Shown here: piece by piece, positions 7,454 to 52,711 of the stretch
How positions within the stretch are numbered: the stretch's first letter is position 1
How the letters are laid out: the number at the start of each line of letters is the position of its first letter
Source of the DNA: Candidatus Amesbacteria bacterium GW2011_GWB1_47_19
GTDB taxonomy: Bacteria; Patescibacteriota; Microgenomatia; CAZETR01; Amesbacteraceae
Assembly: GCA_001002325.1 (NCBI GenBank)
Contig: LCNZ01000007.1
Span: 26,763 to 90,762, forward strand
DNA: 64,000 nt
Reading direction: 5' to 3'
Translations under genes and position numbers: made by a program
Notes under the pieces: model-generated
Databases searched by the model: none
The model's input: the letters and a program-made list of their open reading frames with translations, nothing else
What the model was told of the DNA's origin: nothing

Positions 7454-8524
7454 ATGGTAAAAGTGGCTGTTAACGGTTTCGGGAGGATCGGGAGACTGGC
7501 TTTAAGGATAGGGTTACTGAAGCATCATAACGAAATGGAATTTGCGGCGATCAATACTTCCGGGTCCATGGAGGTTGAGGGATGGGCGCATCTGGTAATG
7601 CAGGATACGACGTACAGGAGGTTTGAGATAGAGATAGAGATAGAGAAAATGAGATTGGTCAAAGAAACGACAGATGAAGATCCGCTGATCGGGTATCTGG
7701 TGGTGCCGAGCATGAATTTGAGGATACCGGTACTGGCACAGAAAGATCCGGAGAAGCTGCCCTGGGGTAAATACGGGGTGGAGGTGGTGATGGAGTGTAC
7801 CGGGAAGTTTACGGATGAGGATGGGGCGATGAAACACGCCAAGGCCGGAGCAAAAAAAGTGATCATTTCGGCGCCCAGCAAGGGGGGAAACGTGGGGACG
7901 TATGTGATGGGGGTAAATGAAGTAAACGGGAATGTAAAAGCAATTTCCAATGCATCTTGTACGACAAATTGCGTGACGCCAGTGGCGGCGGTGATGCATG
8001 CCAAGTTCGGTATCGCCAAGGCGATGATGACGACGGTGCATGCATATACCGACGACCAGGTGCTTCAGGACGGATCGCATAAAGATCTGCGCCGAGCCAG
8101 GGCAGCAGCGGTTAACATAGTGCCGACTTCCACGGGAGCGGCAATTGCCACAACCGAAGTGATACCTGAATTGAAGGGTCTATTTGACGGGATTTCTCTG
8201 CGGGTACCAGTGGTGACGGGATCAATTTCCGACTTTGTGTTTGTGACAAAAAGAAACGTTACCCGGGAGGAAATAAACGAGGCATTCAAGGAGGCGACGC
8301 AAAATTCCCAATATAAAGGGATTTTGGGGATGTCCGGAACAGACGGAGTGCCGGAACACTTGGTGAGCAGTGACATTATCGGCGGTAGTTACAGTGCAAT
8401 TATTGATCCTGAATTTACCCAGGTGATAGACGGGAATCTGGTGAAAGTACTGGCATGGTATGACAATGAGTGGGGGTATGCCAACCGGCTGGTGGAACAA
8501 ACGATAAGACTGGGCAGTGAATGA
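7454..8524 (+). CDS. gap: Glyceraldehyde-3-phosphate dehydrogenase with in-frame EIEIEIE insertion
   Basis: 'VAVNGFGRIGR', 'SNASCTTNC' (catalytic Cys) and 'WYDNEWGY'. A (GAGATA)n tract encodes EIEIEIE after 'YRRF'. Confidence 0.9.
   Translation: MVKVAVNGFGRIGRLALRIGLLKHHNEMEFAAINTSGSMEVEGWAHLVMQDTTYRRFEIEIEIEKMRLVKETTDEDPLIGYLVVPSMNLRIPVLAQKDPEKLPWGKYGVEVVMECTGKFTDEDGAMKHAKAGAKKVIISAPSKGGNVGTYVMGVNEVNGNVKAISNASCTTNCVTPVAAVMHAKFGIAKAMMTTVHAYTDDQVLQDGSHKDLRRARAAAVNIVPTSTGAAIATTEVIPELKGLFDGISLRVPVVTGSISDFVFVTKRNVTREEINEAFKEATQNSQYKGILGMSGTDGVPEHLVSSDIIGGSYSAIIDPEFTQVIDGNLVKVLAWYDNEWGYANRLVEQTIRLGSE
7625..7645. repeat. (GAGATA)n microsatellite, in frame in gap (encodes EIEIEIE)
   Basis: gagatagagatagagatagag. 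Confidence 0.8.
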
Positions 8525-8985
8525 TTATGGACGGACACAGGACTGACTATTCACAGATAACCGAGAATATTATTATCGGATCGGATTTGTGTCCCGGACC
8601 GGGTTGCCCGGTGCACTCCGAGGAGTTTAAAAACCTGGGAGTTTGTGCGGAAGTGAACCTGGAAATTGAACGTAATGAAAAACCGACGCCGGGAATTGAT
8701 GTGTATTTATGGCTGCCGACCGAAGATAAACAGGCTCCCAACCCTGACCAGCTGGCGATAGGCACGGCGGCAATCAATGAAATGGTTAAGACTAATAAGA
8801 CTATCTATGTGCATTGCCGCAACGGACACGGCAGAAGTCCGACCATGGTGGCGGCATACCTGATCCGGTACAGAAATATGGGTGTTTCGGAGGCGATAGC
8901 TTTAATTAAACAGAAACGCCCTGAAATTCACCCGGAAGAGGTACAGATTAAGGCGCTGGAGGAATTTTATAAAACATGCGCGTAG
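8521..8985 (+). CDS. Dual-specificity protein phosphatase
   Basis: Active-site motif 'VHCRNGHGRSPT' (HCxxGxxRS). Confidence 0.7.
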   Translation: MIMDGHRTDYSQITENIIIGSDLCPGPGCPVHSEEFKNLGVCAEVNLEIERNEKPTPGIDVYLWLPTEDKQAPNPDQLAIGTAAINEMVKTNKTIYVHCRNGHGRSPTMVAAYLIRYRNMGVSEAIALIKQKRPEIHPEEVQIKALEEFYKTCA

Positions 8986-9572
8986 TCCCGGCTATATTGA
9001 CAGATGATCCGCAGAAGCTGGAAGAGCTGCTGATTGAGACAGAAAAAAGCGGGCGCTTTGAGAGGGTGCAGATTGATTTTGTTGACGGTGAGTATACGAC
9101 GAATAAGAGTGTAGGAGTGGAAGACCTGCCCGCCAGCAGGCAGGGAGTAAGAGGATGGGGGTTAAAACTTGATGCGCATTTGATGGTGATACAGAAGAAT
9201 GTACAGTCGTATTTTGAAGCTGCAAAGCAGGCAGGTTTTGAAAGAATAATTGTGCAGATGGAAAGTGTTTCCCGGCCGGAAGACTATACGGCGCTGGCTT
9301 TGGATATACATTCACCGGTGGAAGCGATTGAACCCTATATTGAGAAATTGGAATATGTGGTGGTGATGGGAATCGAGCCGGGGTTCGGAGGACAAAAGTT
9401 TGATCCGAAAACGATGGAGAAGATTAAGAGGCTAGACAGTTTGAGAGAACAGTCAAAGTTTAAGTTCAGGATTTGCGTGGACGGGGGAGTGCAAAAAGAG
9501 CATCTGGCGGATTTGGAGAAAGCGGGAGCGGATGAAGCGGCGGTGGGAGTAAAGAGGGTGCTGGGATGGTAA
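8976..9572 (+). CDS. rpe: Ribulose-phosphate 3-epimerase
   Basis: 'DFVDGEY', 'DAHLMV' and 'GIEPGFGGQKF' match the Rpe fold. Confidence 0.75.
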   Translation: MRVVPAILTDDPQKLEELLIETEKSGRFERVQIDFVDGEYTTNKSVGVEDLPASRQGVRGWGLKLDAHLMVIQKNVQSYFEAAKQAGFERIIVQMESVSRPEDYTALALDIHSPVEAIEPYIEKLEYVVVMGIEPGFGGQKFDPKTMEKIKRLDSLREQSKFKFRICVDGGVQKEHLADLEKAGADEAAVGVKRVLGW

Positions 9573-9586
9573 GATAAATAAAGGCT

Positions 9587-10213
9587 ATGGCAAAGATAAA
9601 AATCGCGGAAAAAATCATCAGGACGGTGGTGTGTCTGGGATATGCCGACGCCAAACCGGATGAAGAGCTGTACCATCAGGCTTTCGCGGTGGGAAAAGCC
9701 CTGGCTACTGCCGGGTATATGGTAGCCAACGGCGGGGGTCCGGGAGTGATGCGGGCGACTACGGAGGGAGCCAAGGAAGCAGGCGGAAGAGTGGTGGGGG
9801 TGACATTTTATCCGAAAGACGTGGAAAACTTTGAAGGCCGGGATGAGCATAATCCGATTGACGAGGAAATTAAGACAAAAAACTATCTGGAGAGAACCCT
9901 GAAACTGCTGGATGTTGGTCAGGCGTACCTGATTTTCAAAGGAGGGACGGGAACGATTTCGGAGTTCGGAATGGCGTGGGGTTTGGCCCGGCTGTATTTC
10001 GGGCATCATAAACCATTGATTTTATACGGGAAGTTCTGGGAGAAAATTATGGCCGCTTTCATGTCCAATATGCGGATGCGGCCGGAGGAGTTTCAGGTAT
10101 ACCGGGTGGTGGACAGCCCGGAGGAAGTGATTGTTTCACTGGAACTTTTTGAGCTGATGCTGCGACACGAGAAACATAAATCCAGCCCGGCGGAAAAACC
10201 GTTTGAAATATAA
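9587..10213 (+). CDS. LOG-family (TIGR00730) Rossmann-fold nucleotide-binding protein
   Basis: 'VANGGGPGVMRATTEGA' and 'GGTGTISEF' motifs. Confidence 0.7.
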   Translation: MAKIKIAEKIIRTVVCLGYADAKPDEELYHQAFAVGKALATAGYMVANGGGPGVMRATTEGAKEAGGRVVGVTFYPKDVENFEGRDEHNPIDEEIKTKNYLERTLKLLDVGQAYLIFKGGTGTISEFGMAWGLARLYFGHHKPLILYGKFWEKIMAAFMSNMRMRPEEFQVYRVVDSPEEVIVSLELFELMLRHEKHKSSPAEKPFEI

Positions 10214-10370
10214 TATGCAGACTTTGATCACACTTTTCTTGGCACCGATAATTGCCTGCAGTTTGTCGATCTCGTTGTCCGGTTCGGGCATTATCTGCAT
10301 ACTCGCCCCGCCAAAAACGAAGATTGTTTTAATTTAAATTTGGGCGGGGCTGCGTAAACTGCCCGAAAAG

Positions 10371-11252
10371 GTGATCCAAAGCCTGCAAAATATGTTTCTC
10401 ACGGGTGAGCAAATAAAAAATTTAGAATTAAAAGCGAATGAAATCCGGAAGGATATTATTAACATGTTGCTGGCGGCAGGCAGCGGGCATTCGGCCGGGC
10501 CGCTGGGGATGGCGGATGTGTTTTCCGCACTGTATTTTTCCGGGGTACTGAATTGGGAGCCTGCAGATCCATGGAAAGCAGATAGAGATAGAGTTATCCT
10601 GTCTAACGGTCATATCTGCCCGGTGTGGTACGCGACGCTGGCGCATACGGGAGCTTTTTCGCACCAACAACTGGTGACTTTGAGAAAACTGGGAAGTCCA
10701 TTGCAAGGGCATCCGCATTACCGGGAGCTGCCGGGAGTGGAAAATACCGGCGGACCGCTGGGGCAGGGATTGTCGCAGGCGATAGGGCAGGCAATGGCGG
10801 CAAAAATGGACGGGGCCGGTTGGCGGGTGTATTGCCTGATGAGTGACGCGGAAATGCAGGAGGGACAAACGTGGGAGGCGGTGATGTTTGCCGGGAAAAA
10901 CAACCTTTTCAACCTGACGGCGATTGTAGACCGGAATAATATCCAGATTGACGGATATACAGAAGAGGTGATGCCGCTGGAACCGTTGGCGGATAAATGG
11001 AGGGCATTTAACTGGACGGTTTTGGAGGTGGACGGGCATAATATCAGGGAAATAACCGACGCAATCGAGAAGGCTAAAACCATCCGGGAAAATCCGACGG
11101 TGATAATTGCACATACGATTCCCGGCAAGGGAGTGGAGTTTATGGAAGGGGATTTTACCTGGCACGGCAAGCCGCCGAAACCGGAAGAGGGAGTAGTAGC
11201 AATAAAACAACTGCGGACACTGTGGGGGAGAATCAAATCCGAGCAGGAATGA
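10371..11252 (+). CDS. Transketolase, N-terminal subunit (split tkt)
   Basis: TPP-binding region 'GHSAGPLGMADV...LSNGH'; 293 aa. Confidence 0.85.
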   Translation: MIQSLQNMFLTGEQIKNLELKANEIRKDIINMLLAAGSGHSAGPLGMADVFSALYFSGVLNWEPADPWKADRDRVILSNGHICPVWYATLAHTGAFSHQQLVTLRKLGSPLQGHPHYRELPGVENTGGPLGQGLSQAIGQAMAAKMDGAGWRVYCLMSDAEMQEGQTWEAVMFAGKNNLFNLTAIVDRNNIQIDGYTEEVMPLEPLADKWRAFNWTVLEVDGHNIREITDAIEKAKTIRENPTVIIAHTIPGKGVEFMEGDFTWHGKPPKPEEGVVAIKQLRTLWGRIKSEQE

Positions 11253-11259
11253 GACTTGT

Positions 11260-12780
11260 TTATCGAGCGAGATTGAGGGGAAGGGTGGTTTCCGGAGGGC
11301 AACCGGTTTTGAGGGTGTAGAGGGTGACGGATTCTTCCGAGCCGTAAGGATTGACGAAGTCCTTGACCGGGGTGAGGAAGCGATTGAAACCGGCCTGATA
11401 ATGGTTTTGACCCAGATAATAAACAGGAATGTCAGAACTCAGGCATTCAGCCTGATCGGGAATCGGCGGGAAAAGCTGGCTGTCCAGGTAGCCGGTTTTG
11501 ATCAGAGGGTCGCGGCGGAAGTAGGCGAAAAGAGCGCTGGGAGGATTGCCGGGATTTAAAAAACTGCCGACGAAAACTTGTTGGTTGGGCGGGGGAAGGG
11601 TTTTGACATATTCCAGAGCCTCCCGGGTGGGATAGCCGGTGAAGCTGCAGCAGATATAAACTTCGATGGCCGAGTTTCTGGTAAACCTGGCCAGAGATTT
11701 AAAATAGGCAGGGGGATTGGTCATTTGGAAAAAAATCATGACTGCTGGCAGCAATAAACCGACTGAGAGAACCGGAAAGCGGGATAGTGCCAGGCCGGAA
11801 TAAACGGGGATGAGAATAAGAAAGGGAGAGAGGTAGCGGGGGGAGACAGTACGGACGGACAGGATTTCCAGAAGCAATGGGGAAAGTAACAGTAACAGTA
11901 AAAGTGAATAGTGACGGGATCGACTTATTAAAGACAACAAAACTCCTAATAAAGCCAGGATGAATATAGTTGGGGAGAGCTGGAAGAAGGCGATATCTAG
12001 ATTAGCGATTAAATTTTGGCCCCATTTAAAAAGGGGAAAGCGGAGCATTTCGGAAACTGACAAGGAATATTGACTGTTGGTGGATAAAAATGAAATCCAG
12101 AATTTAGACTGGAAAAGCAGAGGAAAAAGAAGAATGAGGGTGGTTATTAACAGATAAATTGCAAGAGTAAGACGCCATGCCTTGCGGGGGGAGTTAATCG
12201 TTGCCAGCAAATAGTAAATCGTAATAGGGACGATGAATAATAAAGCAGAGGTTTTGATCCAAAAACCAAAGGCGAATAAGGCGCCCAAAGCGACAGTGTA
12301 TTTGAAATGGGAGGCGGCTATCAGACGCAGTAAAAAATATATTGACCAGATGCCCATGGCGGTAACGGCGGATTCAAACAATGCCTGACGGTCGTAAAAG
12401 AAAAAGAGGGGGGACATGAGATATGAGAGAGCAGAAAAGTGGGCGGCGCGTCTGTTAAAAACCAGAAGCGAAACATAGTAGACACCCAAAAGGGCCGCCA
12501 AACCGGTAAATACTGATATAAGACGGCCGGCAATCAGGGGATCGGGGATGATAGTTTCGGCCAGTCCGTAAATCCAGATGTATAACGGCTGTTTGGCGTC
12601 GTAAAGGGAGTGCCAAGGGACACCCAAATGGATAGCCCGCCAGCCCCAGTCCAGATAACTGGCTTCGTCGTTAAAAATCGGGAGAAGAGTAAGATTGATA
12701 ATGCGAGTGATAGTGAATAGTAATAGTATTGGGATTAGGGGGTGTTTTTTAACCTGAGCCGGGAGCATATAATCAATCAT
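11260..12780 (-). CDS. GT39/ArnT-like integral membrane glycosyltransferase (PMT family)
   Basis: 506 aa with more than 10 TM helices. N-terminal 'INLTLLPIFNDEASYLDWGW' is typical of ArnT/PMT-family transferases. Confidence 0.6.
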   Translation of the reverse strand: MIDYMLPAQVKKHPLIPILLLFTITRIINLTLLPIFNDEASYLDWGWRAIHLGVPWHSLYDAKQPLYIWIYGLAETIIPDPLIAGRLISVFTGLAALLGVYYVSLLVFNRRAAHFSALSYLMSPLFFFYDRQALFESAVTAMGIWSIYFLLRLIAASHFKYTVALGALFAFGFWIKTSALLFIVPITIYYLLATINSPRKAWRLTLAIYLLITTLILLFPLLFQSKFWISFLSTNSQYSLSVSEMLRFPLFKWGQNLIANLDIAFFQLSPTIFILALLGVLLSLISRSRHYSLLLLLLLSPLLLEILSVRTVSPRYLSPFLILIPVYSGLALSRFPVLSVGLLLPAVMIFFQMTNPPAYFKSLARFTRNSAIEVYICCSFTGYPTREALEYVKTLPPPNQQVFVGSFLNPGNPPSALFAYFRRDPLIKTGYLDSQLFPPIPDQAECLSSDIPVYYLGQNHYQAGFNRFLTPVKDFVNPYGSEESVTLYTLKTGCPPETTLPLNLAR

Positions 12781-13818
12781 ATGCCGAAGGGAGTTTTAAA
12801 TCCAAAAGTATTTGAGAAAGATTTGGAGAAGAAAGCTACAAGAGACGGATATGGGCGGGGTTTGATGGAATTGGGGGAGATGAATGAAAAAGTGGTGGTG
12901 CTGACTGGAGATTTGAAGGAGAGTACGCGGGCGGAGGAATTTTTTAAGAAGTATCCGGAAAGAAGCATTGAGTGCGGGGTGGCAGAGCAAAATATGACGG
13001 GAATTGCGGCGGGATTGGCGGCGGCGGGAAAAATTCCGTTTGTGTCTTCGTATGCGGTGTTTTCCCCGGGCAGGGCTTGGGATCAGGTACGCGTTTCGGT
13101 CTGTTATTCCAACCTCAATGTAAAAATCTCCGGAGCACATACCGGGGTATCGGTGGGGCCGGACGGAGCGACGCACCAGGCGTTGGAAGATATTGCCATC
13201 ATGCGGGTACTGCCCAATATGACGGTGGTGGTACCGTGTGATGAGATTGAAACCCGGAAAATGACGCTGGCTGCGGCGTCCTGTCCCGGGCCGGTGTATT
13301 TCCGGTTTGCGAGAGAAAAAACAGCGGTGATTACTACGGAAGAAATGCCATTTGAAATGGGGAGGGCGGAGGTGTATTGGGATTCTGATAATTTTCAATT
13401 TTCAATTTTCAATTTTCAATCAATTTCAAAATTTTCAAATCTCAAAAACCAAATCGCAATAATTGGTTGCGGTCCGTTACTTTATGATTGTTTGGTCGCG
13501 GCGAAGGAACTTCATGGGGAGGGGATAGGGACGATGGTGATCAATAACCATACGGTGAAACCAATGGATGAAAAAACGATTATTGAGGCGGTGGAAAAAT
13601 GCGGGGCGGTGGTGACCGTGGAGGAACATCAGGTGAGCGGGGGGATGGGGTCGGCGGTGGCGGAAGTGCTGGCACGGAATTTACCGACTCCGATGGAATT
13701 TGTAGGGATGCCCGATAAATTCGGGGAATCGGGGGAACCGGGGGAACTGCTGAAAAAATACGGAATGGATGTCGCCTCTATAAAAATGGCCATTAAGAGA
13801 GTATTAGCGAGAAAGTAA
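12781..13818 (+). CDS. Transketolase, C-terminal subunit with in-frame repeat insertion
   Basis: 'KATRDGYGRGLMELGE' and 'VGPDGATHQALEDIAIMR' match TktC. The insertion 'NFQFSIFNFQSISKF' is encoded by an AATTTTC tandem. Confidence 0.85.
   Translation: MPKGVLNPKVFEKDLEKKATRDGYGRGLMELGEMNEKVVVLTGDLKESTRAEEFFKKYPERSIECGVAEQNMTGIAAGLAAAGKIPFVSSYAVFSPGRAWDQVRVSVCYSNLNVKISGAHTGVSVGPDGATHQALEDIAIMRVLPNMTVVVPCDEIETRKMTLAAASCPGPVYFRFAREKTAVITTEEMPFEMGRAEVYWDSDNFQFSIFNFQSISKFSNLKNQIAIIGCGPLLYDCLVAAKELHGEGIGTMVINNHTVKPMDEKTIIEAVEKCGAVVTVEEHQVSGGMGSAVAEVLARNLPTPMEFVGMPDKFGESGEPGELLKKYGMDVASIKMAIKRVLARK
13389..13452. repeat. In-frame AATTTTC tandem repeat element inside the transketolase C-terminal gene
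   Basis: aattttcaattttcaattttcaattttcaatcaatttcaaaattttcaaatctcaaaaaccaaatcgcaataattgg. Confidence 0.8.
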
Positions 13819-13859
13819 GGGGCTTGACAGTAAGTAAGGAATATAATATATTGTAAGAT

Positions 13860-14126
13860 ATGACAGGGTTAGTAACGTTATCCTCTAAAAATCAATTCAC
13901 TTTGCCGGTAGGGATTGTGAGAGAATTGGGCTTGAAGAAAGGCAGTCGGTTATGGACCAAGGTGGACGGGGACACTATAACTATAAAGAAAGCGGGGGAT
14001 ACCTGGGATTCTCTTCAGGGATCTTTAAAAGATACCTCACTGACGAAAGGAAAGTCAGTTTTGGAGATTATTGAGTTAGCCGGAAAAATAGAGAGCAAAA
14101 GATTAGCTAAAAAATATGGGGTATAA
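13860..14126 (+). CDS. AbrB/MazE/SpoVT-family antitoxin
   Basis: SpoVT-AbrB swapped-hairpin signature 'KNQFTLPVGIVRELGLKKGSRL'. Confidence 0.6.
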   Translation: MTGLVTLSSKNQFTLPVGIVRELGLKKGSRLWTKVDGDTITIKKAGDTWDSLQGSLKDTSLTKGKSVLEIIELAGKIESKRLAKKYGV

Positions 14127-14505
14127 ATTCATAGATACTAACGTTTTTATAGAAATATTTGCCAGGAAGGGAATCAATTCTGAAAAATCAATAAAGTTAT
14201 TAAAAGAAAATCGGGATTTGATGACTACGAGTTTGGTGATATCTGAAATTGAATGGGTATTGAGGAGTGCATATCTTCTGGACAGACAAGTTATATCAAA
14301 ATATATCGGCAGTGTTTTGTCATCTGATATTATTATAGAAAATAAAAAAACTTTGATAAATACATTGAACTTTTATGGGGCTAATTTAGCGGATTGGGCT
14401 GATTGTTTAAATATGTTTGGCTTAAAGGAAAAGAATATATCCACGGTTTATTCTTATGATAGGGGATTGAACATATATAAATGGATAAAACGAAGGGAGC
14501 CATAA
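14116..14505 (+). CDS. PIN-domain toxin (VapC-like)
   Basis: 'FIDTNVFIE' N-terminal PIN motif. Overlaps the upstream antitoxin by 11 nt. Confidence 0.6.
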   Translation: MGYKFIDTNVFIEIFARKGINSEKSIKLLKENRDLMTTSLVISEIEWVLRSAYLLDRQVISKYIGSVLSSDIIIENKKTLINTLNFYGANLADWADCLNMFGLKEKNISTVYSYDRGLNIYKWIKRREP

Positions 14506-14515
14506 TCAGGACAGG

Positions 14516-15644: not shown

Positions 15645-15806
15645 CTGTTTTTGTGGCGCATTCGGGGTAAGCGACTGCAGGTGCTCACCTCCCTCTCGTC
15701 CGCTAAGCGGACTCCGCGGACCCGTTGCGCTCCTGTTCGCATACCCCTGCATGCGCAATAAAGGGGACATCTCCATCTGCTCGTTGGGTTGATATAATGC
15801 GGCATT

Positions 15807-16523
15807 ATGGGACAGATTGAAGAATTGCGCAGGGCCATAAATAAAAACGGCTGGCGGGGTATAGGTATGGATATAGATCATACGATTTGCGACTCCGGAC
15901 CTGTTTGGGACGTTCCGATGCAACAGTTATGTGAGAAAGTCGCCCGGGAATGCGGGGTATCCGATGAGGAAATATGGAGACAATGGAGGAACATGAACGA
16001 CGCTATGTACTTGACTACCGGTGGGGTACACCCACGCAAGTATCACCTGATGGCCAGTAAGATAGCTCATGATTACAATTTGGACCCAGGACAGACAAGA
16101 CAGTGGGCAGGAGAAATGAGACGGAAGATATATACGGCAGTTCCTGATTTATATCCCGGAACCCGAGAAACTATAGCTACTCTTAAAGAAGCCGGATTGC
16201 AGCAGGTGTTTGTGACACACGCTCCTCCCGGTCTAAATAAGTTAAGAATGAAGACTTGGGGATTTGAGAATACGCGAGTTTTTTCGGAATCGACTTTAAG
16301 AAAAAAGGATTATCGGGTTTGGGCGCAGGTTATTAGTAGTCTAAATATATTTCCATGGGAGATGGTAGCAGTGGGTGATAGTTGGCCTGGGGATATGCAG
16401 GCGGCTCGCGATGCAGGAATAGAAGCCAGGGTTTGGGTAAAACCGAAATGGGAGATATTGAGGGGGGATTATGCGGGAGAGAAGGTGCCGACTATTGAAC
16501 AAATGTCTACTTTTGGCCTATGA
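15807..16523 (+). CDS. HAD-superfamily hydrolase
   Basis: Motif I 'GMDIDHTI' (DxDxT) and motif IV 'VAVGDSWPGDMQAARDAG'. Confidence 0.6.
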   Translation: MGQIEELRRAINKNGWRGIGMDIDHTICDSGPVWDVPMQQLCEKVARECGVSDEEIWRQWRNMNDAMYLTTGGVHPRKYHLMASKIAHDYNLDPGQTRQWAGEMRRKIYTAVPDLYPGTRETIATLKEAGLQQVFVTHAPPGLNKLRMKTWGFENTRVFSESTLRKKDYRVWAQVISSLNIFPWEMVAVGDSWPGDMQAARDAGIEARVWVKPKWEILRGDYAGEKVPTIEQMSTFGL

Positions 16524-17247
16524 CCAGGGGATGGAGCACGGGCCGACGGATTTCAGTGATGAAAATGTTGATCCGGCGGCAATAGAGAAGATTGCTAAAG
16601 ACGCGGGGGTGTTTACGGGGATAGTATTTCAGGCGGGAATAGCGGAAAAGTACCGGAGTGATCAGCTACCACCCCTGGTGGTGAAACTGAACGGGAAGAC
16701 GGGGTTTCATAAGAAGGAGGAGCCGGTTTCACTGCAGTTGTGCAGTGTGGAAAGGGCGATGGAGTTGGGGGCGACGGCGGTGGGATATACGATTTATGTG
16801 GGGAGCGAGCATGAGGAAGAAATGATGAAGGAATTCGGGAAAATAGTGGAGGAAGCACATGAGAAAGATTTGCCGGTGGTGGCCTGGATGTACCCGCGGG
16901 GTAAACATATTGAGGAGATAGAGAAGAGAGATAGGGATAGAGGAGATAAAAAAGAAATGAATGAAACTATTGCATATGCGGCGAGACTAGGACTGGAGCT
17001 GGGGGCGGATATGGTGAAACTACCGTTTACGGGAGATACCCAAAGTTTTTCCTGGGTGGTAAAGTCTGCCGGAAAAACGCGAGTGGTGGTACAGGGGGGA
17101 GGGAAGAAAGAGGAGGGAGAGTTTCTGGAGGAAGTAAGACAGATAATGGACAGCGGGGCGGCGGGAATGGCGGTGGGGAGGAATGTATGGCAACATCCGG
17201 ATCCGGTGGGGATTGCCAAGAAAGTAGCACAAATAATTTGGGGATGA
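16471..17247 (+). CDS. Fructose-bisphosphate aldolase class I, archaeal DhnA-type
   Basis: 'LLLAYDQGMEHGP' (DHG motif), 'VKLPFTGD' and 'AGMAVGRNVWQ'. Contains a degenerate (GAGATA)-like acidic insertion 'IEEIEKRDRDRGDKK'. Confidence 0.65.
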   Translation: MRERRCRLLNKCLLLAYDQGMEHGPTDFSDENVDPAAIEKIAKDAGVFTGIVFQAGIAEKYRSDQLPPLVVKLNGKTGFHKKEEPVSLQLCSVERAMELGATAVGYTIYVGSEHEEEMMKEFGKIVEEAHEKDLPVVAWMYPRGKHIEEIEKRDRDRGDKKEMNETIAYAARLGLELGADMVKLPFTGDTQSFSWVVKSAGKTRVVVQGGGKKEEGEFLEEVRQIMDSGAAGMAVGRNVWQHPDPVGIAKKVAQIIWG

Positions 17248-18311: not shown

Positions 18312-18315
18312 TTGA

Positions 18316-19072: not shown

Positions 19073-20047
19073 ATGGTGGCAAGGATTTTTGTGACCAGGA
19101 TGATTCCGTTTTGGGAAGAAGTGAGCAAACCGCTGGTTGATGCCGGACACGAGGTGGTGATGTATCCGAATCATAAACCGATTACCAGAGAAGAGATAGA
19201 GATAGAGATAGAGAAGGGATACGACGGATTATTAACACTGTTGACGGATAAAATTGATGAGGGGTTGCTGGTGCATGACAAGAGCGGGCAACTAAAGGTA
19301 ATTGCCAACTATGCGGTGGGCTATGACAATATAGACATAGAGGCGTGCAAAAAGCACAACATTAAAGTGGCCAATACCCCCTGTGACGAGGTAAATGAGA
19401 GCGTGGCGGAATTTACCTGGAGCCTGATGCTGGCGCTGACGCGGAGACTGCCCGAGGCGGGGGAGTTTATGCGAAATGCGGCCTACCGGGGGTGGGATCC
19501 GGATATATTTGTGGGGCGGGATATGATGGGAAAAACACTGGGAATCGCAGGCATGGGAAGAATCGGAGGGATGGTGGCCAGGAGAGCTGAAGGATTCGGG
19601 ATGAGGATTGAGTATTACAACAGAAAACCGGTAGAAGGGGTCAATTACGAATATAAAGCCAGACTGGAAGAGTTGCTGGCCCAGTCTGATTTTGTGAGCC
19701 TGCATGTACCATTGACAGCTGAAACCAGGCACTTAATTAATAAAACTAATCTGCATCTATTTAAAAAAACCGCGGTTTTGGTAAACACCGCCCGGGGACC
19801 GGTAGTGGATGAGGTGGAAGTGGGTGAAGCGCTGAGGGCGGGAATGATTGCCGGATACGGGGCGGATGTGTTTGAGAATGAGCCGGACCCGCATCCGGAA
19901 CTGCTGCTGATGGAGAATGTCCTGTTGACCCCTCATATTGCTTCGGCTACGGAGGGGGCAAGGAAAAAAATGGGGGAATTGGCAGTGTTGAACCTGACGG
20001 AGGGACTGGCAGGGAAAGAAATGCCGAATCTAGTAAGAGGATTATAA
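19073..20047 (+). CDS. D-isomer-specific 2-hydroxyacid dehydrogenase (glycerate/hydroxypyruvate reductase-like) with EIEIEIE insertion
   Basis: NAD-binding 'GIAGMGRIGG' and a catalytic-region R...E...H layout. Confidence 0.8.
   Translation: MVARIFVTRMIPFWEEVSKPLVDAGHEVVMYPNHKPITREEIEIEIEKGYDGLLTLLTDKIDEGLLVHDKSGQLKVIANYAVGYDNIDIEACKKHNIKVANTPCDEVNESVAEFTWSLMLALTRRLPEAGEFMRNAAYRGWDPDIFVGRDMMGKTLGIAGMGRIGGMVARRAEGFGMRIEYYNRKPVEGVNYEYKARLEELLAQSDFVSLHVPLTAETRHLINKTNLHLFKKTAVLVNTARGPVVDEVEVGEALRAGMIAGYGADVFENEPDPHPELLLMENVLLTPHIASATEGARKKMGELAVLNLTEGLAGKEMPNLVRGL
19193..19213. repeat. (GAGATA)n in frame (EIEIEIE)
   Basis: gagatagagatagagatagag. Confidence 0.8.
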
Positions 20048-36944: not shown

Positions 36945-37016
36945 GGATCCGTAGCTCAACGGTAGAGCGGCTGTCTTATACACAGTATGTTGGAGGTTCG
37001 AATCCTCCCGGATCCA
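36945..37016 (+). tRNA. tRNA with anticodon TAT (reads AUA; tRNA-Ile(UAU)-like)
   Basis: Cloverleaf folded by hand: acceptor GGATCCG/CGGATCC, D-arm GCTC-AACGGTA-GAGC, anticodon stem GCTGT/ACAGT with loop CTTATAC, T-arm GGAGG-TTCGAAT-CCTCC. CCA is not encoded. Confidence 0.7.
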
Positions 37017-37144
37017 CAGATGCCGGGAGGCAACATTTGTTGTGCCCGGACCGCTTCAGGATGTTGTAGGTCAATCTTGGCCACAGAAGTTTACATCGGT
37101 TGTAAAATGGGCGGATGGCAGGCGGCAAGTTAGAACGATTAATA

Positions 37145-40425: not shown

Positions 40426-40448
40426 TGTGAGTTCTTTTATAAGGCGCG

Positions 40449-40711
40449 TGCGGGGTAGTGTAGAGCTGCACGGAAGGCTAGTAGTATGGGCCCCGCCGGT
40501 AGTAATACCGGTGCGCAAACTTGGCTATATCGGTGGACATCCTGAGCTTGTCGAAGGACAATACCGAGGCAACCTCGAAAGAGAGAGTCCGTAGAGACTA
40601 CACGCCAAGCACCCCGACGTTATGTCGGGGTGATGATATAGTCCGACTCCCCGAGTAATCGGGGTCAGAATGCATAATCTTCCAGACCGGGCGCGACTCC
40701 CGGCCCCGCAA
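40449..40711 (+). tRNA. tRNA-Met(CAU) (initiator-like acceptor stem) interrupted by a group I intron in the anticodon loop; exons 40449..40479 and 40673..40711
   Basis: Exon 1 reads TGCGGGG-TA-GTGT-AGAGCT-GCAC-G-GAAGG-CT and ends at U33. Exon 2 reads CATAA-TCTTC-CAGA-CCGGG-CGCGACT-CCCGG-CCCCGCA-A. The spliced anticodon loop is CUCAUAA. The acceptor GCGGGG/CCCCGC-A-A matches E. coli tRNA-fMet. Followed by a T-run. Confidence 0.65.
40480..40672 (+). ncRNA. Group I self-splicing intron (193 nt, no ORF) in the tRNA-Met anticodon loop
   Basis: P1: exon GGCU pairs with IGS GGCC (40489-92) with U·G at the splice site. P10: IGS UAUG pairs with the 3' exon start CAUA. P7 strands AGACUA (40595-600) and UAGUC (40639-43) flank the P8 hairpin CCCCGAC-GUUAU-GUCGGGG. 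P9 is CCCCGA-GUAA-UCGGGG with a GNRA loop. The terminal G is at 40672. The core resembles the Tetrahymena intron (GAUAUAGUCGGACC) and the Azoarcus tRNA-Ile intron (GUAGAGACUAGACGG). Confidence 0.65.
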
Positions 40712-40783
40712 CACATTTTTTGATCTTCTTGTATTTCGTGGTATAGTCAATTTCCGCTTTCCGGCTGCGATATAATTCCGGTA

Positions 40784-41968: not shown

Positions 41969-41971
41969 ATT

Positions 41972-43680: not shown

Positions 43681-43702
43681 GGAAAATTGTTATAATTTCC
43701 AA

Positions 43703-47100: not shown

Positions 47101-47329
47101 GCAGCAGGATATGGTGGAATGGGGACGGACTTATATTGAGCAGCCGCCTATTTCGCAGGAAATGCAGGCAAAGATTGATACGGAAGTAAAAAGAATCATG
47201 GACGAAGGATATCTGAAGGCGGTTGCCATATTAAAAAAATACCGGAAAAGGCTGGATGCCGTATCGCTGAGACTTCTGGAAATTGAAACTATGGACGGGG
47301 ATGAGTTTGAGAAGATCATGAAGGCGTAA
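44183..47329 (+). CDS. ftsH: ATP-dependent zinc metalloprotease FtsH, interrupted by an in-frame intein in the Walker A P-loop
   Basis: N-terminal TM helices, AAA motifs (GPSGVGK|...|[15 protein letters not shown], '[13 protein letters not shown]'), and the Zn-protease 'HEVGHAIV'. At 1048 aa it is too long because a 426-aa insert sits between GK and T of GxxGxGKT. Confidence 0.9.
44870..46147 (+). mobile_element. Intein (426 aa) with LAGLIDADG homing-endonuclease domain, inserted in the FtsH P-loop
   Basis: Begins with Cys1 (CVTGDTIIW) and contains a TxxH block B (GTPEHPV). The two LAGLIDADG motifs are '[12 protein letters not shown]' and '[12 protein letters not shown]'. The intein ends with ...VYDF...GFVNHN followed by the +1 Thr of the extein (TLLARAV). 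Confidence 0.85.
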
Positions 47330-47338
47330 AATAAGAGG

Positions 47339-48262
47339 ATGAACAAATTGTTACTGGTTGACGGGAATGCGGTGCTGCACCGGGCATATTATGCCCTGCC
47401 GGATTGGAGAAACAGATCCGGGGAGGCGACGGCGGGAGTATACGGATTTTTGTCCATGATTTTGAAAGCGATTGAGGAGCTGAAGCCGACGCATCTGGCA
47501 GTAGTGTTTGACTGCCCGGAACCAACCTTCAGACACACCATGTACGTGGGGTATCAGGTGACGCGGGAGAAGGACAGGCAGGTATCGGAAGATATCTGGG
47601 GACAAGTGGAGAAATTGAAGATCGTATTTGAAAAAATGGGGGTTCCGGTATTTGCCGTACCCAGTTTCGAGGCGGATGACGTGATAGGTACTCTGGCGAA
47701 GCAGTCGACGGACGGAGAAGTAATTATTATTACAGGGGACAGGGATCTGATGCAGTTGGTAAATGAAAAAGTGAAACTATTTATGCCGCAAAAAGGTCTT
47801 TCTGATGCGGTGCTGGTCGACGGCGAAAAAGTCATACAAAGACTGGGAGTGCATCCGAAGCAAGTTGTGGACTACAAGGGGCTGATGGGAGACAGCAGTG
47901 ATAATTATCCGGGAGTGGCGGGTATCGGGCCGAAAACCGCGGCGCACCTGCTGGCGGAGCACGGTTCGCTTAAAGATATTTATAAACAAATCACAAATAC
48001 AAAACCGAATGATACGAAGAAACCGAAGATAGTACCCGCTATCACCGACAAATTGATAAAGGGCTATGATGCGGCGATGCTGTCGAAACAATTGGCGACG
48101 ATCAGAACTGACGTGCCGGTGAGTTGGGAGCCGGAAAAGGCTTCGGTTCCGAGTGAAGAAAAAATACTGGCAGTACTGAAGGAATTGGGGTATAAGAGCT
48201 TAGTAAAACGAATCAACCAGAATGAAGAGATTGATGAAAACCAACAAAAATTGTTTGAGTAG
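47339..48262 (+). CDS. 5'-3' exonuclease (stand-alone Pol I-type FEN domain)
   Basis: 'LLLVDGNAVLHRAYYAL' and 'GDSSDNYPGVAGIGPKTAAHLL' (H3TH). Confidence 0.8.
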   Translation: MNKLLLVDGNAVLHRAYYALPDWRNRSGEATAGVYGFLSMILKAIEELKPTHLAVVFDCPEPTFRHTMYVGYQVTREKDRQVSEDIWGQVEKLKIVFEKMGVPVFAVPSFEADDVIGTLAKQSTDGEVIIITGDRDLMQLVNEKVKLFMPQKGLSDAVLVDGEKVIQRLGVHPKQVVDYKGLMGDSSDNYPGVAGIGPKTAAHLLAEHGSLKDIYKQITNTKPNDTKKPKIVPAITDKLIKGYDAAMLSKQLATIRTDVPVSWEPEKASVPSEEKILAVLKELGYKSLVKRINQNEEIDENQQKLFE

Positions 48263-48268
48263 GAAAAT

Positions 48269-49438
48269 ATGAATGTTGCTTTGGTACATGATTACCTGAA
48301 GGAACCCGGGGGGGCGGAAGCGGTACTGATAGCTTTGAAAGAAATCTGGCCGGAAGCACCGGTCTATACGGCGTATAAGTTTCCCCGTTTTTGGGGAAGA
48401 TATAAAACGATGTTGGACAAATGGGTGATACATGAAAGCTGGGGAAAATATTTACCATTCCTGCCGAAGTTACTGAGCCACTACACCATCCTGTCTCCGC
48501 TGTTTTTTGAGAGTTTTGATTTGACGAAATATGACCTGGTAGTGGTTTCGGCTGCCGGCGGATATTTTCCAAACGCTGTGAAAATCGGGCCGAAGACAAA
48601 GCTGGTGACTTATTGCCATACCCCCCCCCGGTTTCTGTACGGATATGATACGGCGACAAAAGAGCGATTTAAGTGGTATTGGAGACCGGTTTCAGAAATT
48701 GCCAACCATATTTTACGGATGGTGGATTTTAAGCTGGCCCAAAGACCGCATTTGTTTATTGCCAATTCGAAAAATGTCAGAAACAGGATAAGGAAGTTTT
48801 ACAGAAGAGAGGCGGAGGTGGTGTATCCCCCGATTGAAATTCAAAATTCAAAAAATAAAAATCAAATCAAAAACAAGCAAAGCTTGCGCTACGCGAATAA
48901 AAATCAAATATTCAAAAGGGATTATTTTGTGATTGTGTCGAGAATTATCGGATCAAAAAATATCGAACTGGCGGTGGAGGCGGCGAACCAGTTTAAGTTT
49001 AAGTTGAAGATAGCAGGGAGACCAATTGGTAAAGGCGGAGATGAGATTGCTGCTAAAATCCGGGGGAAATATACAGAATACCTGGGGGAGGTAAGCGAGG
49101 ACGGAAAGGCAAATTTATTGGCAGGAGCGAAGGCTTTTCTGGCACTGGAAAAAGATGCAGATTTCGGGATGACAGCAGTGGAGCCTCAGGTTTACGGAAC
49201 ACCGGTGATTGCTTTTCGAAACGGGGGATATCTGGAGGCGGTGGAGAAAAATAAAACGGGAATATTTTTTGATGAACTGACCCCGAAAGGACTGTGGAGT
49301 GCTATCGGCCAGTTTAATAAAATGAAGTGGAATAGAAAGTTAATCCAAAATAATGCAGCCAAATTTTCCAAAGAGAGATTTATCCGGGAAATATTAATCC
49401 AAATTAATAATATAAATAAACATGCCGGAATTGCCTGA
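48269..49438 (+). CDS. Family 4 (GT1-fold) glycosyltransferase with in-frame repeat insertion
   Basis: C-terminal 'E.FG...EA...G.PVIA' GT4 motif region (FGMTAVEPQVYGTPVIAF); insertion 'IQNSKNKNQIKNKQSLRYANKNQIFK'. Confidence 0.7.
   Translation: MNVALVHDYLKEPGGAEAVLIALKEIWPEAPVYTAYKFPRFWGRYKTMLDKWVIHESWGKYLPFLPKLLSHYTILSPLFFESFDLTKYDLVVVSAAGGYFPNAVKIGPKTKLVTYCHTPPRFLYGYDTATKERFKWYWRPVSEIANHILRMVDFKLAQRPHLFIANSKNVRNRIRKFYRREAEVVYPPIEIQNSKNKNQIKNKQSLRYANKNQIFKRDYFVIVSRIIGSKNIELAVEAANQFKFKLKIAGRPIGKGGDEIAAKIRGKYTEYLGEVSEDGKANLLAGAKAFLALEKDADFGMTAVEPQVYGTPVIAFRNGGYLEAVEKNKTGIFFDELTPKGLWSAIGQFNKMKWNRKLIQNNAAKFSKERFIREILIQINNINKHAGIA
48835..48918. repeat. AAATTCAAA-type repeat element with GC hairpin core (gcaaagcttgcgctacgcg), in frame in the GT4 gene
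   Basis: attcaaaattcaaaaaataaaaatcaaatcaaaaacaagcaaagcttgcgctacgcgaataaaaatcaaatattcaaaag. Confidence 0.75.
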
Positions 49439-50306
49439 GATCGAGACGATCAGGATGCAGCTGAGAAAAGTTCTGCCGGGAAAAATAATTAATAAAATAG
49501 AGGTGTTGAAGCCGAAATCGTTTCAGGGAAAGAAGGAGCTGGTAGAGGGGAAGAGAGTGGTGGGGGTGAAGAGATTGGCGAAAGTACTGTTGATAGACCT
49601 CGAAGGTGATATAGATATCGCGATACATTTTAAGATGACGGGACAACTCGTCTGGGTACCGGACGATAATTTTCAACATTTAAAAAAAAGGGTGGTGGGG
49701 GGGCATCCCACAGCCGATTTTGTAGGGACATTGCCGAGTAAGCATACGAGGGTGGTATTGCATATGGATTCCGGGACTTTGTATTTTAACGACCAGAGGA
49801 TTTTCGGGTGGGTGAAGGCGGGGACGAAAGAGGAGATTGCTAATATGAAGTTTTTGAAAGAATTGGGGCCGGAGCCCATGAATATTTCTGAGGAAGAATT
49901 CATTAAACTGATAAGTAAACGGAAAAAGCCGGTAAAGCTGGTGTTGATGGATCAGACAGAGATTTCTGGTGTGGGAAATATTTATGCAAACGATGCCTGC
50001 TGGGAAGCAAAAGTTAACCCCCGGCGGCTGGCAAATTCTTTGACCAGGAGGCAATATCAGGATTTATATCGGGGGGTGATTAAGGTCCTGGAAGAGGGGA
50101 TAAAGTACGGGGGAGCGACAGCGGCGGATGCGAAATATATTGATTTGCACGGCTTGGGCGGTCATTATCAGGAGCATTTCCGGGTGTATGACCGGGAAGG
50201 GGAAGAGTGCAGAAGACCTGCCTGCCGGCAGGCAGGTGGAGGAATAATTCACCGGCTGGCTTTGGGGGGAAGAGGGACCTACTTTTGCCCCAAGTGTCAA
50301 ATATAA
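49422..50306 (+). CDS. fpg: Formamidopyrimidine-DNA glycosylase (Fpg/MutM; Nei family)
   Basis: 'MPELPEIETIR' N-terminal catalytic Pro2, H2TH, and a C-terminal zinc finger C-x2-C...C-x2-C. Confidence 0.8.
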   Translation: MPELPEIETIRMQLRKVLPGKIINKIEVLKPKSFQGKKELVEGKRVVGVKRLAKVLLIDLEGDIDIAIHFKMTGQLVWVPDDNFQHLKKRVVGGHPTADFVGTLPSKHTRVVLHMDSGTLYFNDQRIFGWVKAGTKEEIANMKFLKELGPEPMNISEEEFIKLISKRKKPVKLVLMDQTEISGVGNIYANDACWEAKVNPRRLANSLTRRQYQDLYRGVIKVLEEGIKYGGATAADAKYIDLHGLGGHYQEHFRVYDREGEECRRPACRQAGGGIIHRLALGGRGTYFCPKCQI

Positions 50307-50677
50307 ATACGCTGTATGGGCATAAGTTGAGTAAAATGTGATATGATGTGTTCATGGTAGGGGAAGCAGACCGGGAAACCCAGGGGGGTGCGAGGTTAAA
50401 AACAAGAAGGGATATTGCCATGAAGAGGGGGGGTTTGAGTGTTCTTTGGGGAGATTTGGAAGCTGCACAGACGGGACCGTTCGGGATGGAGAATTAGATG
50501 GTAGAAGTCTTACAAGACTTAAGTCGGTTAGAGATGAAGAAACGGCCGGATATGCGTTTCGTCAAATTGAGAGACTTGTTGATAGGGGAATGGGATGGAG
50601 AAGGGCTGTCCAGGTAGCGGATAGATTGACCGAAAAGCAGTTTCAGGCAAAGCGTGAGTAACGGTTATAATTAGCGG

Positions 50678-51652
50678 GTGATAATTACCCAGACTCCACT
50701 GAGAATCAGTTTTGCCGGAGGGGGGACTGATTTTCCGGATTTTTTCAATAAGCATCGGGGCAGAGTGGTGTCCATGGCGGTAGATAAATATATTTATTGC
50801 GTGGTCAAGGAAAGGTTTGATGATTTGATAGTAGTGGGGTATACCAAACGGGAAGTAGTGGAAAAAGTGGCGGAGATTGGGCATGAACTGGTGCGGGAAG
50901 CAATGCGTAAAACCGGGGTGAAGAAGGGAGTGGAAATCACTTTTTTGTCGGATATTCCTTCGGCCGGATCCGGATTGGGGTCATCGTCGGCAGTGACGGT
51001 GGGAGTGTTGAACGCTTTGTATCAATACCGGGGCAAGGCTGTGGAAGCGGTGAAGTTAGCCGAGGAAGCATGCGAAATAGAAATTGAAATTCTGGGGAAA
51101 CCGGTCGGAGTACAGGACCAGTATATTGCGGCCTTCGGGGGGATAAGATACATGGAGTTTTCCGGGCGGGGAGTGAAAGTGTCGGAAGTGGCCGTAAACG
51201 GAGAAACGAAAGACGATTTGGAAAAACAACTGATGGTATTTTATACGGGCCGAACCAGGCAGGCGGAAGAGGTGCTGGCAGAGCAGAAGGAAAATATTTC
51301 CAAAAAGACCAAGCTGCTAAATCAAATGGTCGATCAGGCAGTGAAAGCTAAAGAGTTTTTGGAGCGGGGGAGGATAGAGGATTTGGGGAAACTGTTGAAT
51401 AAGGGGTGGCAGCTAAAAAAACAGATGGCGAGCAGGATCAGTGACCGGGAGATTGACGACAAGTACCGGGCGGCTGTCAAGGCCGGAGCATGGGGCGGGA
51501 AAATATGCGGTGCCGGCGGGGGAGGATTTTTGATGCTTCTGGTACCCGGTAATCGGCGGGATGCCGTCCGGCGGGCGGTGAACGGATGGCGGGAAGTACC
51601 ATTCGGCCCGGCGATGGACGGAAGCAAAGTGATTTTTAACGTGAGAAGATAG
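50678..51652 (+). CDS. GHMP-family sugar kinase (HddA/heptose-7-phosphate kinase-like)
   Basis: 'TPLRISFAGGGTDFPDFF' N-terminus and 'PSAGSGLGSSSAVTV' GHMP motif 2. Confidence 0.7.
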   Translation: MIITQTPLRISFAGGGTDFPDFFNKHRGRVVSMAVDKYIYCVVKERFDDLIVVGYTKREVVEKVAEIGHELVREAMRKTGVKKGVEITFLSDIPSAGSGLGSSSAVTVGVLNALYQYRGKAVEAVKLAEEACEIEIEILGKPVGVQDQYIAAFGGIRYMEFSGRGVKVSEVAVNGETKDDLEKQLMVFYTGRTRQAEEVLAEQKENISKKTKLLNQMVDQAVKAKEFLERGRIEDLGKLLNKGWQLKKQMASRISDREIDDKYRAAVKAGAWGGKICGAGGGGFLMLLVPGNRRDAVRRAVNGWREVPFGPAMDGSKVIFNVRR

Positions 51653-51661
51653 GACAGGATC

Positions 51662-52711
51662 ATGCGGATACTGCAGGTGATATTGAAGAATTTCAGGAAT
51701 TATAAGGAGGCTGAGTTTGAACCGGAAGTAAAGACGGTGGTATACGGATCAAACGGGAGTGGGAAAAGTAACCTGTTGGAGGCCATCTATCTGGCTGCCA
51801 CAGGGAAAAGCTTCAGAGCGGAGAGAGATGACGAGATGATCAGATACGGGGAGAAATTTTCAATTTTAAATTTTCAATTTTTAAATAATTCTCAAATTTT
51901 CAATTTCCAAATCACCTTAACTGACGGGAGTATAGGGGTGACCAGGAAGAAATTTGAAGTGAACGGGATACCCAAGAGGATGGTGGATTTTGCGGGCAGA
52001 CTGAGGGCGGTGCTTTTCGGACCACAGGATATTGAGCTGGTGACGGGAAACCCAAGCGGGAGGAGACGATATCTGGATTTTGTAATTTTTCAGACAGACA
52101 GGGAATACAGAAGATGCCATTTGTCATATGAAAAGGGCTTACGACAAAGGAATAAACTGCTGGATTTTATCAGGGACGGAGCAGCAGGCAGGAACCAGCT
52201 GTTTTTTTGGGACAAATTGCTGATAAAGAACGGGGAGTACATTACTCAAAAAAGAACCGAATATATTGAATTTTTAAATGGTTTCAAAGAGGCAGGGGGG
52301 CAGAGATACAAAGTGGAATATGACAAAAGCCTGATTTCCCAGGTGAGACTGGAGCAGTATGCCCAAGAGGAGATCGCTGCAGGTAATACACTGGTGGGAC
52401 CACATAGGGATGACTTCGTCATTAAAATTCAAAATGATTGGAAGGATGTGAGTAAATATGGATCCCGGGGGGAGCAGAGGATGGCGGTATTGTGGCTGAA
52501 ACTGGGGGAGTTAAAGTTTTTGTCGGAGGATGTACAGCAACCGGTATTGCTGCTTGATGATATTTTTTCGGAATTGGACCACAAACACAGACGTGAGATA
52601 GAGATAGAGATAGAGAGCCTGGTGGAGAAAGGGGGACAGGTGATCATGACTACTGCCGATGAGCATCTGGTGCCGACCGACGGATGGAATATAATTAAAT
52701 TACCAATTTGA
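51662..52711 (+). CDS. recF: DNA replication/repair protein RecF with two in-frame repeat insertions
   Basis: Walker A 'GSNGSGKSNLLEAIY' and signature 'LLDDIFSELD'. Insertions 'FSILNFQFLNNSQIFNFQ' and 'REIEIEIE'. Confidence 0.85.
   Translation: MRILQVILKNFRNYKEAEFEPEVKTVVYGSNGSGKSNLLEAIYLAATGKSFRAERDDEMIRYGEKFSILNFQFLNNSQIFNFQITLTDGSIGVTRKKFEVNGIPKRMVDFAGRLRAVLFGPQDIELVTGNPSGRRRYLDFVIFQTDREYRRCHLSYEKGLRQRNKLLDFIRDGAAGRNQLFFWDKLLIKNGEYITQKRTEYIEFLNGFKEAGGQRYKVEYDKSLISQVRLEQYAQEEIAAGNTLVGPHRDDFVIKIQNDWKDVSKYGSRGEQRMAVLWLKLGELKFLSEDVQQPVLLLDDIFSELDHKHRREIEIEIESLVEKGGQVIMTTADEHLVPTDGWNIIKLPI
51854..51912. repeat. AATTTTC-type repeat element, in frame in recF
   Basis: aaattttcaattttaaattttcaatttttaaataattctcaaattttcaatttccaaa. 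Confidence 0.75.
52595..52617. repeat. (GAGATA)n in frame in recF (EIEIEIE)
   Basis: gagatagagatagagatagagag. Confidence 0.8.

Follow-up and report, generated by a model that had tools for sequence, protein, structure and literature searches.

Why should three unrelated enzymes of one bacterium carry the same 21 nucleotides within their coding sequences? The question is raised by a 64,000-nucleotide stretch of Candidatus Amesbacteria bacterium GW2011_GWB1_47_19 (hereafter the window), an uncultivated groundwater member of the Microgenomates in the candidate phyla radiation (CPR). Here the genes for a type I glyceraldehyde-3-phosphate dehydrogenase (GAPDH; gap), a D-2-hydroxyacid dehydrogenase (GyaR) and RecF each contain the tract (GAGATA)3GAG. 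The first-pass annotation of this DNA had reported the identical tract in the three genes and a degenerate version of it in an aldolase gene, and all four proved to be present (Table 1). The tract was perfect, non-random and in frame, occupied a native position in each protein, varied by whole units between strains and was conserved at synonymous sites across species. It is a short coding microsatellite of capped length that recurs in different genes and is conserved between species. The tracts probably arose in place, through slippage that homogenised native period-6 quasi-repeats while selection on protein length capped them at 3.5 units.

The 21-mer (GAGATAGAGATAGAGATAGAG, 3.5 units of GAGATA) occurs exactly three times in the window, always on the + strand, and the count stayed at three when up to two mismatches were allowed. 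Tandem Repeats Finder reported the same three arrays, which reach 3.67–3.83 units if flanking in-phase bases are counted, and each consists of at least three perfect head-to-tail copies of a unit of 1–6 nt, as is required of a microsatellite. Every copy is in frame and is read as EIEIEIE. Besides these three tracts, the perfect repeats with a period of 4–12 nt in the window are limited to a pair of AATTTTC heptamer arrays and a single array of AGTAAC. No match to the 21-mer was found in 100 dinucleotide-preserving shuffles of the window, and none in 824 kb of unrelated metagenome DNA that served as a negative control, drawn from a set of 80 loci of which 79 were those of unrelated GAPDHs. In ~146 kb of Amesbacteria DNA, a set partly ascertained for the tract, GAGATA accounted for 13 of the 24 perfect hexamer repeats that reached 14 nt or more, every other unit being a singleton.

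Codon usage was derived from the 68 long open reading frames (ORFs) of the window, in which GAG makes up 44% of Glu codons and ATA 31% of Ile codons. With this usage, the probability of the exact 21-mer given the peptide EIEIEIE is ~1.1 × 10-3 per site, and ~10-4 EIEIEIE peptides would be expected by chance in the 19,135 codons of the window. The tract was thus more frequent than composition predicts, whether judged by shuffles, unrelated DNA or codon probability. Outside the tracts, GAGATA encodes 16 of 109 Glu-Ile pairs (~15%) and ATAGAG encodes 14 of 86 Ile-Glu pairs, which rules out codon-pair bias as the cause. The window encodes four ExExExE heptapeptides, and three of these are the GAGATA tract. 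A GHMP kinase (51074–51091, + strand) provides an internal control, because its native EIEIEI is written GAA ATA GAA ATT GAA ATT, an imperfect DNA repeat; an EI peptide repeat alone therefore does not imply GAGATA codons. The three copies are explained neither by chance nor by codon bias. The three proteins were residue-for-residue identical in many independent Amesbacteria assemblies (NCBI, ENA, JGI and Logan), among them GCA_003488165.1, GW2011_GWB1_47_19, GW2011_GWA1_44_24 and RIFOXYB1_FULL_47_13, which indicates that the tract is real sequence and rules out an assembly artefact. Six loci that were retrieved were 99.99–100% identical to the window across 5–7 kb.

Two observations concern the coding background of the window. 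A tRNA-Ile with anticodon UAU (36945–37017) reads AUA directly and fits the 31% ATA usage; in this genome context, the AUA codon that each tract uses three times is thus not rare. The window has a very strong GC skew that is uniform throughout (+0.23 to +0.38), and its AT skew is mostly positive; 54 of the 68 long ORFs lie on the + strand, and the coding strand is heavily purine-loaded.

At each tract, the protein was compared with solved structures and with about 120 Amesbacteria-level orthologs per gene. The GAPDH tract pairs, gapless, with the native strand that follows the conserved ‘RF’ of solved GAPDHs (‘NADISYDE’, ‘PGEVAYDD’), and orthologs have FEIEIESEK or FEIEVKAEK at this position with no change in length. 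At the tract, the dehydrogenase exceeds the glyoxylate reductase of Pyrococcus by no more than one residue (PDB 2dbq; ‘reeieieiekgyd’ vs. ‘re-illkkvkevd’), and its orthologs are of unchanged length, with E-[LIM]-E-x-E-[LIV]-E-K or R-E-E-L-E-A/K-E-L-E-K (REELEAELEK). In RecF the tract lies shortly after the Walker B/D-loop LLLDDIFSELD and aligns without a gap to PDB 5z69 (‘hkhrreieieie’ vs. ‘dnrkkyilkkle’, i.e., ‘KKYILKKLE’); the closest orthologs carry EIEMEIE, EIEIEID, EIEREIE or EIETEIE (EIExEIE), again at the same length. A native E-h-E-x-E-h-E segment of equal length is thus found at all three sites. AlphaFold2 predicted a helix at residues 39–47 of the dehydrogenase, with a predicted local distance difference test (pLDDT) score above 90, and a strand at residues 62–65 of GAPDH, where block-mean pLDDT was 75 for residues 51–60 and 95 for residues 61–70. 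The tract is therefore predicted to be ordered in both enzymes, as a helix in GyaR and partly as a strand in GAPDH, and does not correspond to a disordered region.

Residues that homologs lack, the mark of an inserted repeat, were found only in the aldolase stretch and at none of the three perfect tracts. Because native acidic/aliphatic segments of the same length are present in both structures and orthologs, the perfect tracts did not arise by insertion and instead represent native segments rewritten in a slippage-prone form. The first-pass annotation had read the repeats as insertions, while naming a native acidic segment in orthologs as the finding that would speak against this; alignment revealed such a segment at each perfect tract, and the idea of insertion survives for the aldolase alone, where 10–11 residues have been added.

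Length variation, which the first-pass annotation had raised as a feature to look for, was found, and it proceeds by whole units. Among protein clusters at 90% identity there were two short alleles, both reading EIEIE, one in GAPDH (P0123) and one in the dehydrogenase (P0130). At the nucleotide level, contig L211 (20.9 kb, 0 mismatches to the window) has one unit (AGAGAT) deleted in the dehydrogenase tract, and contig L212 (14.2 kb, 4 mismatches) has one GAGATA unit deleted in the gap tract. Both short alleles are in frame and full length. Over the 35 kb compared, the only other indel in these contigs, which were chosen for carrying the variant, was a shared one of 88 nt at 16501. Short alleles were rare: they accounted for one contig record in 19 at gap, one in 29 at the dehydrogenase and none in 19 at recF, or 2 of ~67 overall. 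At the level of contigs, the tracts behave as microsatellites that vary by whole units between near-identical strains.

Between species, the tract was, unexpectedly, conserved at synonymous sites. The dehydrogenases of four other Amesbacteria species (L007–L010; 67–81% amino acid identity) carry the identical 21-mer at the identical site, and in the codon alignment none of the 7 tract codons differs between any of the five species. Outside the tract, identical codons in all five species were found at 19 of 150 invariant residues (0 of 11 Glu and 1 of 5 Ile), and pairwise identical-codon fractions of 0.40–0.51 imply that the synonymous sites of this gene are close to saturation. The nucleotide conservation ends at the tract edges. 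In the RecF of L215 and L217 (~66–67% identity), each tract matches at 20 of 21 nt, with ATA changed to ATG in L217 and the final GAG to GAC in L215; the invariant tract codons were identical in the three species in 5 of 5 cases, against a background of 29%. The tract is conserved at synonymous sites beyond its flanks, and homogenisation by slippage predicts the same.

Intermediate and decayed states were also present, as a cycle of birth and decay predicts. In the gap genes of relatives the tract position is occupied by GAGATAGAGATA GAA AGC GAG or GAGATAGAGATAGAG AGT GAA, and in one dehydrogenase ortholog the repeat is fully decayed (GAA CTG GAG ACG GAG GTA GAG). Other dehydrogenase orthologs read ELELELE (P0165) and EMEMEIE (P0194), a hint that other units may spread as well. 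The 21-mer was also found in another Amesbacteria species (L045, 3242–3262), in an unrelated YqeY/GatB-like protein that reads TREEIEIEIEK, flanked by T-R-E … K just as the dehydrogenase tract is, and L010 has a second site within its own dehydrogenase, (ATAGAG)3, read as IEIEIE (L010 2505–2522). The 376 retrieved members of the three families contained no EI run of more than 7 residues, whereas (GAGATA)n arrays in other phyla had 3 to 147 units among the matches listed in a scan of genome contigs. The Amesbacteria tracts are thus capped in length, which is consistent with an ordered native segment.

In the explanation favoured here, segments in which Glu alternates with an aliphatic residue (E-h-E-x-E-h-E), native to several Amesbacteria proteins, would form a period-6 quasi-repeat in the DNA, (GAGNNN)3GAG. 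Replication slippage or misalignment by one 6-nt unit, whether by gain, loss, or misalign-and-realign copying, would spread a unit across its neighbours, and this spreading would both make the repeat perfect and keep it so, a form of concerted evolution within the array. With a unit of two codons, all slippage products would remain in frame and change the protein by one Glu-Ile more or less. Selection on the ordered native segment would hold the array at 7 residues, or 3.5 units, so that shorter alleles may arise and yet stay rare. Such homogenisation would explain why the conservation coincides exactly with the repeat, and also why alleles differ by unit steps. Slippage is thus inferred to be the homogenising force, with selection on protein length setting the cap.

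Several results weigh against this explanation. In a neighbor-joining tree of the dehydrogenases, built after masking of the tract region, the five species with a perfect tract do not group together but are dispersed among relatives with ELExELE. The 21-mer must then either have originated three times or more, or have persisted through saturating divergence with loss in most lineages, and both options are demanding for slippage on a mere 3.5 units. Interrupted or two-unit versions (recF of L217; gap of L213 and L214) retain GAG and ATA codons, though slippage on these is expected to be weak. All perfect EI tracts observed use GAGATA, namely gap, the dehydrogenase in five species, the second site of L010 and the YqeY-like gene of L045, and recF of L215 is one base off; slippage leaves the use of this sole unit, a minority codon pair, without explanation. 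Alleles longer by one unit were absent from the contig records. The polymorphism itself consists of two assembled contigs from one study, observed at the contig level and picked for the variant, so that any estimate of its rate is biased.

A lineage-specific, sequence-directed phenomenon of Amesbacteria may be envisaged instead, in which short native coding segments are repeatedly overwritten and held as a few preferred units (GAGATA, always 21 nt long, and heptamers of the AATTTTC type). The tracts would then be functional DNA or RNA elements common to many housekeeping genes, or would be maintained by directed templating or conversion, in either case going beyond ordinary slippage; this is unlikely overall. 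If the 21-mer were a selected nucleic-acid element within coding sequence, for instance a binding site in DNA or RNA or a sequence-specific signal of some other kind, purifying selection would act on its nucleotides and slippage would be incidental. Perfect conservation of the tract's synonymous sites in the dehydrogenases, and nearly so in RecF, speaks for such an element, as do the recurrence of one unit at one 21-nt length in at least four unrelated genes (including the YqeY-like gene of another species), the fact that GAGATA is not the preferred Glu-Ile codon pair, and the phylogenetic scatter of the perfect-tract lineages. It is nevertheless rather unlikely, since all copies stand in one reading frame at natively E-h-E-x-E-h-E positions, while their position within the gene is inconsistent (codons 41, 58 and 312), and since no copy was found in non-coding DNA or on the non-coding strand in the small sample of 64 kb plus ~80 kb of related loci. 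The tract is missing from most orthologs, and alleles shorter by one unit exist. No Rfam family matched at the tracts, no structure was predicted there (the tract was unpaired in RNA folds, with z of 0.07 to 0.63), and no candidate binding factor emerged. By eye, the tract fits the consensus of neither Hfq (ARN)n sites nor DnaA-trio-like repeats.

An improbable variant is that ectopic templated repair or short-patch gene conversion maintains the identity of the dispersed copies, or that some other directed process specific to the lineage does so, overwriting short native segments with preferred units such as GAGATA and AATTTTC. This would account for the identity of the unit in unrelated genes and species, and the AATTTTC family behaves alike: the window and L215 share 27 identical nt of recF (AAATTTTCAATTTTAAATTTTCAATTT) at 67% amino acid identity, while L217 has ordinary codons there, and the perfect repeats of period 4–12 nt in the window amount to two recurring families and one singleton. 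Against it, homologous recombination would find little to act on in 21 identical nt between unrelated flanks, the window revealed neither a template locus nor a dedicated enzyme, and slippage within the array already accounts for perfection and unit-step alleles. The first-pass annotation had compared the tracts to contingency loci; a (GAGATA)n cassette inserted in frame into three enzymes in this manner would fit the identical tract in three genes, the truly inserted degenerate version in the aldolase and the polymorphism in unit number. This must be considered very improbable, because the perfect tracts add no residues relative to structures or orthologs, and the comparison itself fails: a 6-nt unit cannot switch the frame, the short alleles are in frame, the genes are housekeeping genes, and there are only 3.5 units. 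Coincidence (codon bias with convergence at the protein level) or an assembly or sequencing artefact might draw on a purine-rich coding strand and on Glu and Ile both being common residues, but is scarcely credible in view of the low expectations for 21-mer and peptide (~10-3 per site and ~10-4 per window), the lack of the 21-mer in 824 kb of unrelated metagenome DNA and the identical proteins in independent assemblies; moreover, the tract is far shorter than an assembler k-mer or a read. Homogenisation by slippage, with a cap set by the protein, accordingly remains the explanation that we prefer.

Table 1. Host genes, GAGATA tracts and GAGATA-like sequences in the window.
Feature	Coordinates	Strand	Basis or reading
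Type I glyceraldehyde-3-phosphate dehydrogenase gene (gap)	7454–8524	+	NCBIfam TIGR01534, 370.6 bits, above cutoff; PDB matches E = 1e-88
(GAGATA)3GAG tract in gap, residues 58–64	7625–7645	+	EIEIEIE
D-2-hydroxyacid dehydrogenase gene (glyoxylate reductase family, GyaR)	19073–20047	+	NF009714, 303.6 bits, below equivalog cutoff; PDB 2dbq E = 1e-75
(GAGATA)3GAG tract in dehydrogenase, residues 41–47	19193–19213	+	EIEIEIE
recF gene	51662–52711	+	TIGR00611, 280.3 bits, above cutoff of 172
(GAGATA)3GAG tract in recF, residues 312–318	52595–52615	+	EIEIEIE
GA-rich degenerate GAGATA-like repeat IEEIEKRDRDRGDKK in class I (DhnA/FbaB-type) aldolase	16912–16956	+	Read as EEIEKRDRDRGDKKE
14-nt AGATAGAGATAGAG in transketolase N-half	10580–10593	+	DRDR; L216 ortholog has EDRDKVILSNGH at that place

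Since its NF009714 score falls below the equivalog cutoff, the dehydrogenase is assigned to the glyoxylate reductase family, as a putative member, at the family level only. In GAPDH, a clade-specific insertion of 14–16 residues (KMRLVKETTDEDPLIGY; residues ~65–82, window 7646–7700) directly follows the tract and is predicted to be ordered; among Amesbacteria orthologs it occurs in three forms, full, 7 residues shorter, and absent.

The degenerate stretch in the aldolase gene includes the codons GAG GAG ATA GAG AAG AGA GAT AGG GAT AGA GGA GAT and uses the hexamer in two frames, as GAG ATA (EI) and as AGA GAT (RD). Alignment with PDB 1ojx leaves a gap of 11 residues here, and the close ortholog in L216 is shorter by 10. 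Alone among the four sites, it is a true insertion of 10–11 residues. Upstream, at the junction of a HAD hydrolase (15807–16523) and the aldolase (16471–17247), the window is without the 88 nt at 16501 that L211 and L212 carry. The missing 88 nt comprise the last codons of the HAD hydrolase, a spacer and the aldolase start codon, so that in the window the two ORFs overlap and the N-terminus of the aldolase differs. This difference could be a real deletion allele or a difference in assembly. The sequence AGATAGAGATAGAG in the transketolase gene was considered as a fourth tract and ruled out, as it encodes the native DRDR motif of transketolase.

A second repeat family, of AATTTTC-type AT-rich heptamers, lies in frame in housekeeping genes of the window (1576–1655, 13390–13420, 51855–51912, 53057–53088, 53260–53292, 56956–57013 and 58941–58972). 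Its host genes encode the C-half of transketolase, PCMT, RecF, NAD(P)HX dehydratase, ATP-dependent DNA ligase and UppP/BacA, and the repeats are read as NFQFSIFNFQ-like peptides. In transketolase, the repeat is a 16-residue insertion relative to the L216 ortholog. Elsewhere in the window, Rfam identified a group I intron at 40447–40665 with tRNA-like flanks (region ~40449–40720). When position 40479 was joined to 40673, ARAGORN recognised a tRNA with anticodon CAT, the exact splice site being uncertain. Toxin-antitoxin pairs (PhdYeFM/ParE-like and MazE/PIN-like), named from the Pfam labels of identical loci, lie at about 4840–5370 and 13860–14505, amid genes of glycolysis and the pentose-phosphate pathway.

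Coding microsatellites of bacteria are usually regarded either as short-lived accidents or as on/off switches in surface genes. The present case differs from both, being a perfect 21-nt hexamer repeat in ordered segments of core enzymes in a CPR bacterium with a reduced genome, which varies by whole units between strains and is yet identical in nucleotides between species that have otherwise randomised their synonymous sites. If slippage and selection on length are indeed responsible, the tracts would be a clean natural example of concerted evolution in a very short coding array. They also carry two cautions, that ‘insertions’ inferred from sequence alone can prove to be native segments, and that perfect repeats can mimic purifying selection in dN/dS or synonymous-constraint scans. 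Should the identity of the unit and its fixed length instead reflect a function or a directed process, this would imply a so far unknown sequence-specific mechanism in CPR bacteria.

No description of this repeat, or of coding repeats in Amesbacteria, was found in the literature searched. The closest kind of known system is the ordinary in-frame coding simple sequence repeat (SSR), or variable number tandem repeat, with tri- or hexanucleotide units, which evolves by slipped-strand mispairing; the tracts share with it a perfect 6-nt tandem repeat, change by whole units between close strains and a frame that is kept. Bacterial SSRs are usually short-lived and specific to one locus. The Amesbacteria tracts differ in that they lie in ordered native secondary structure of core enzymes, comprise 3.5 units with a hard cap, repeat one unit in unrelated genes, and are identical in DNA across species in which synonymous sites are otherwise saturated. 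The contingency loci of Haemophilus, Neisseria and Campylobacter, i.e., phase-variable SSRs, are likewise hypermutable repeats within genes with repeat-number alleles in natural populations. Here, by contrast, the tract is very short and has no effect on frame or promoter spacing, hence no on/off switch, and the genes are those of GAPDH, a 2-hydroxyacid dehydrogenase and RecF rather than surface or restriction-modification genes. Cryptic simplicity, reportedly described by Tautz, Trick and Dover as scrambled simple sequence generated by slippage in coding DNA, resembles the aldolase stretch, in which scrambled GAGATA-like simple sequence adds residues, whereas the three main tracts are perfect and add no length.

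The amino acid tandem repeats (aaTRs) of Borgs are also perfect nucleotide repeats in ORFs with a unit divisible by three, vary within populations and occur in similar form in functionally related proteins (PMC9879509). Those repeats are recent additions that are absent from homologs, give rise to intrinsic disorder and differ in their nucleotide unit between homologous proteins (PMC9879509). The Amesbacteria tracts differ from them on each of these counts, as they rewrite a native, ordered segment with no added residues and use the same nucleotide unit across genes and species.

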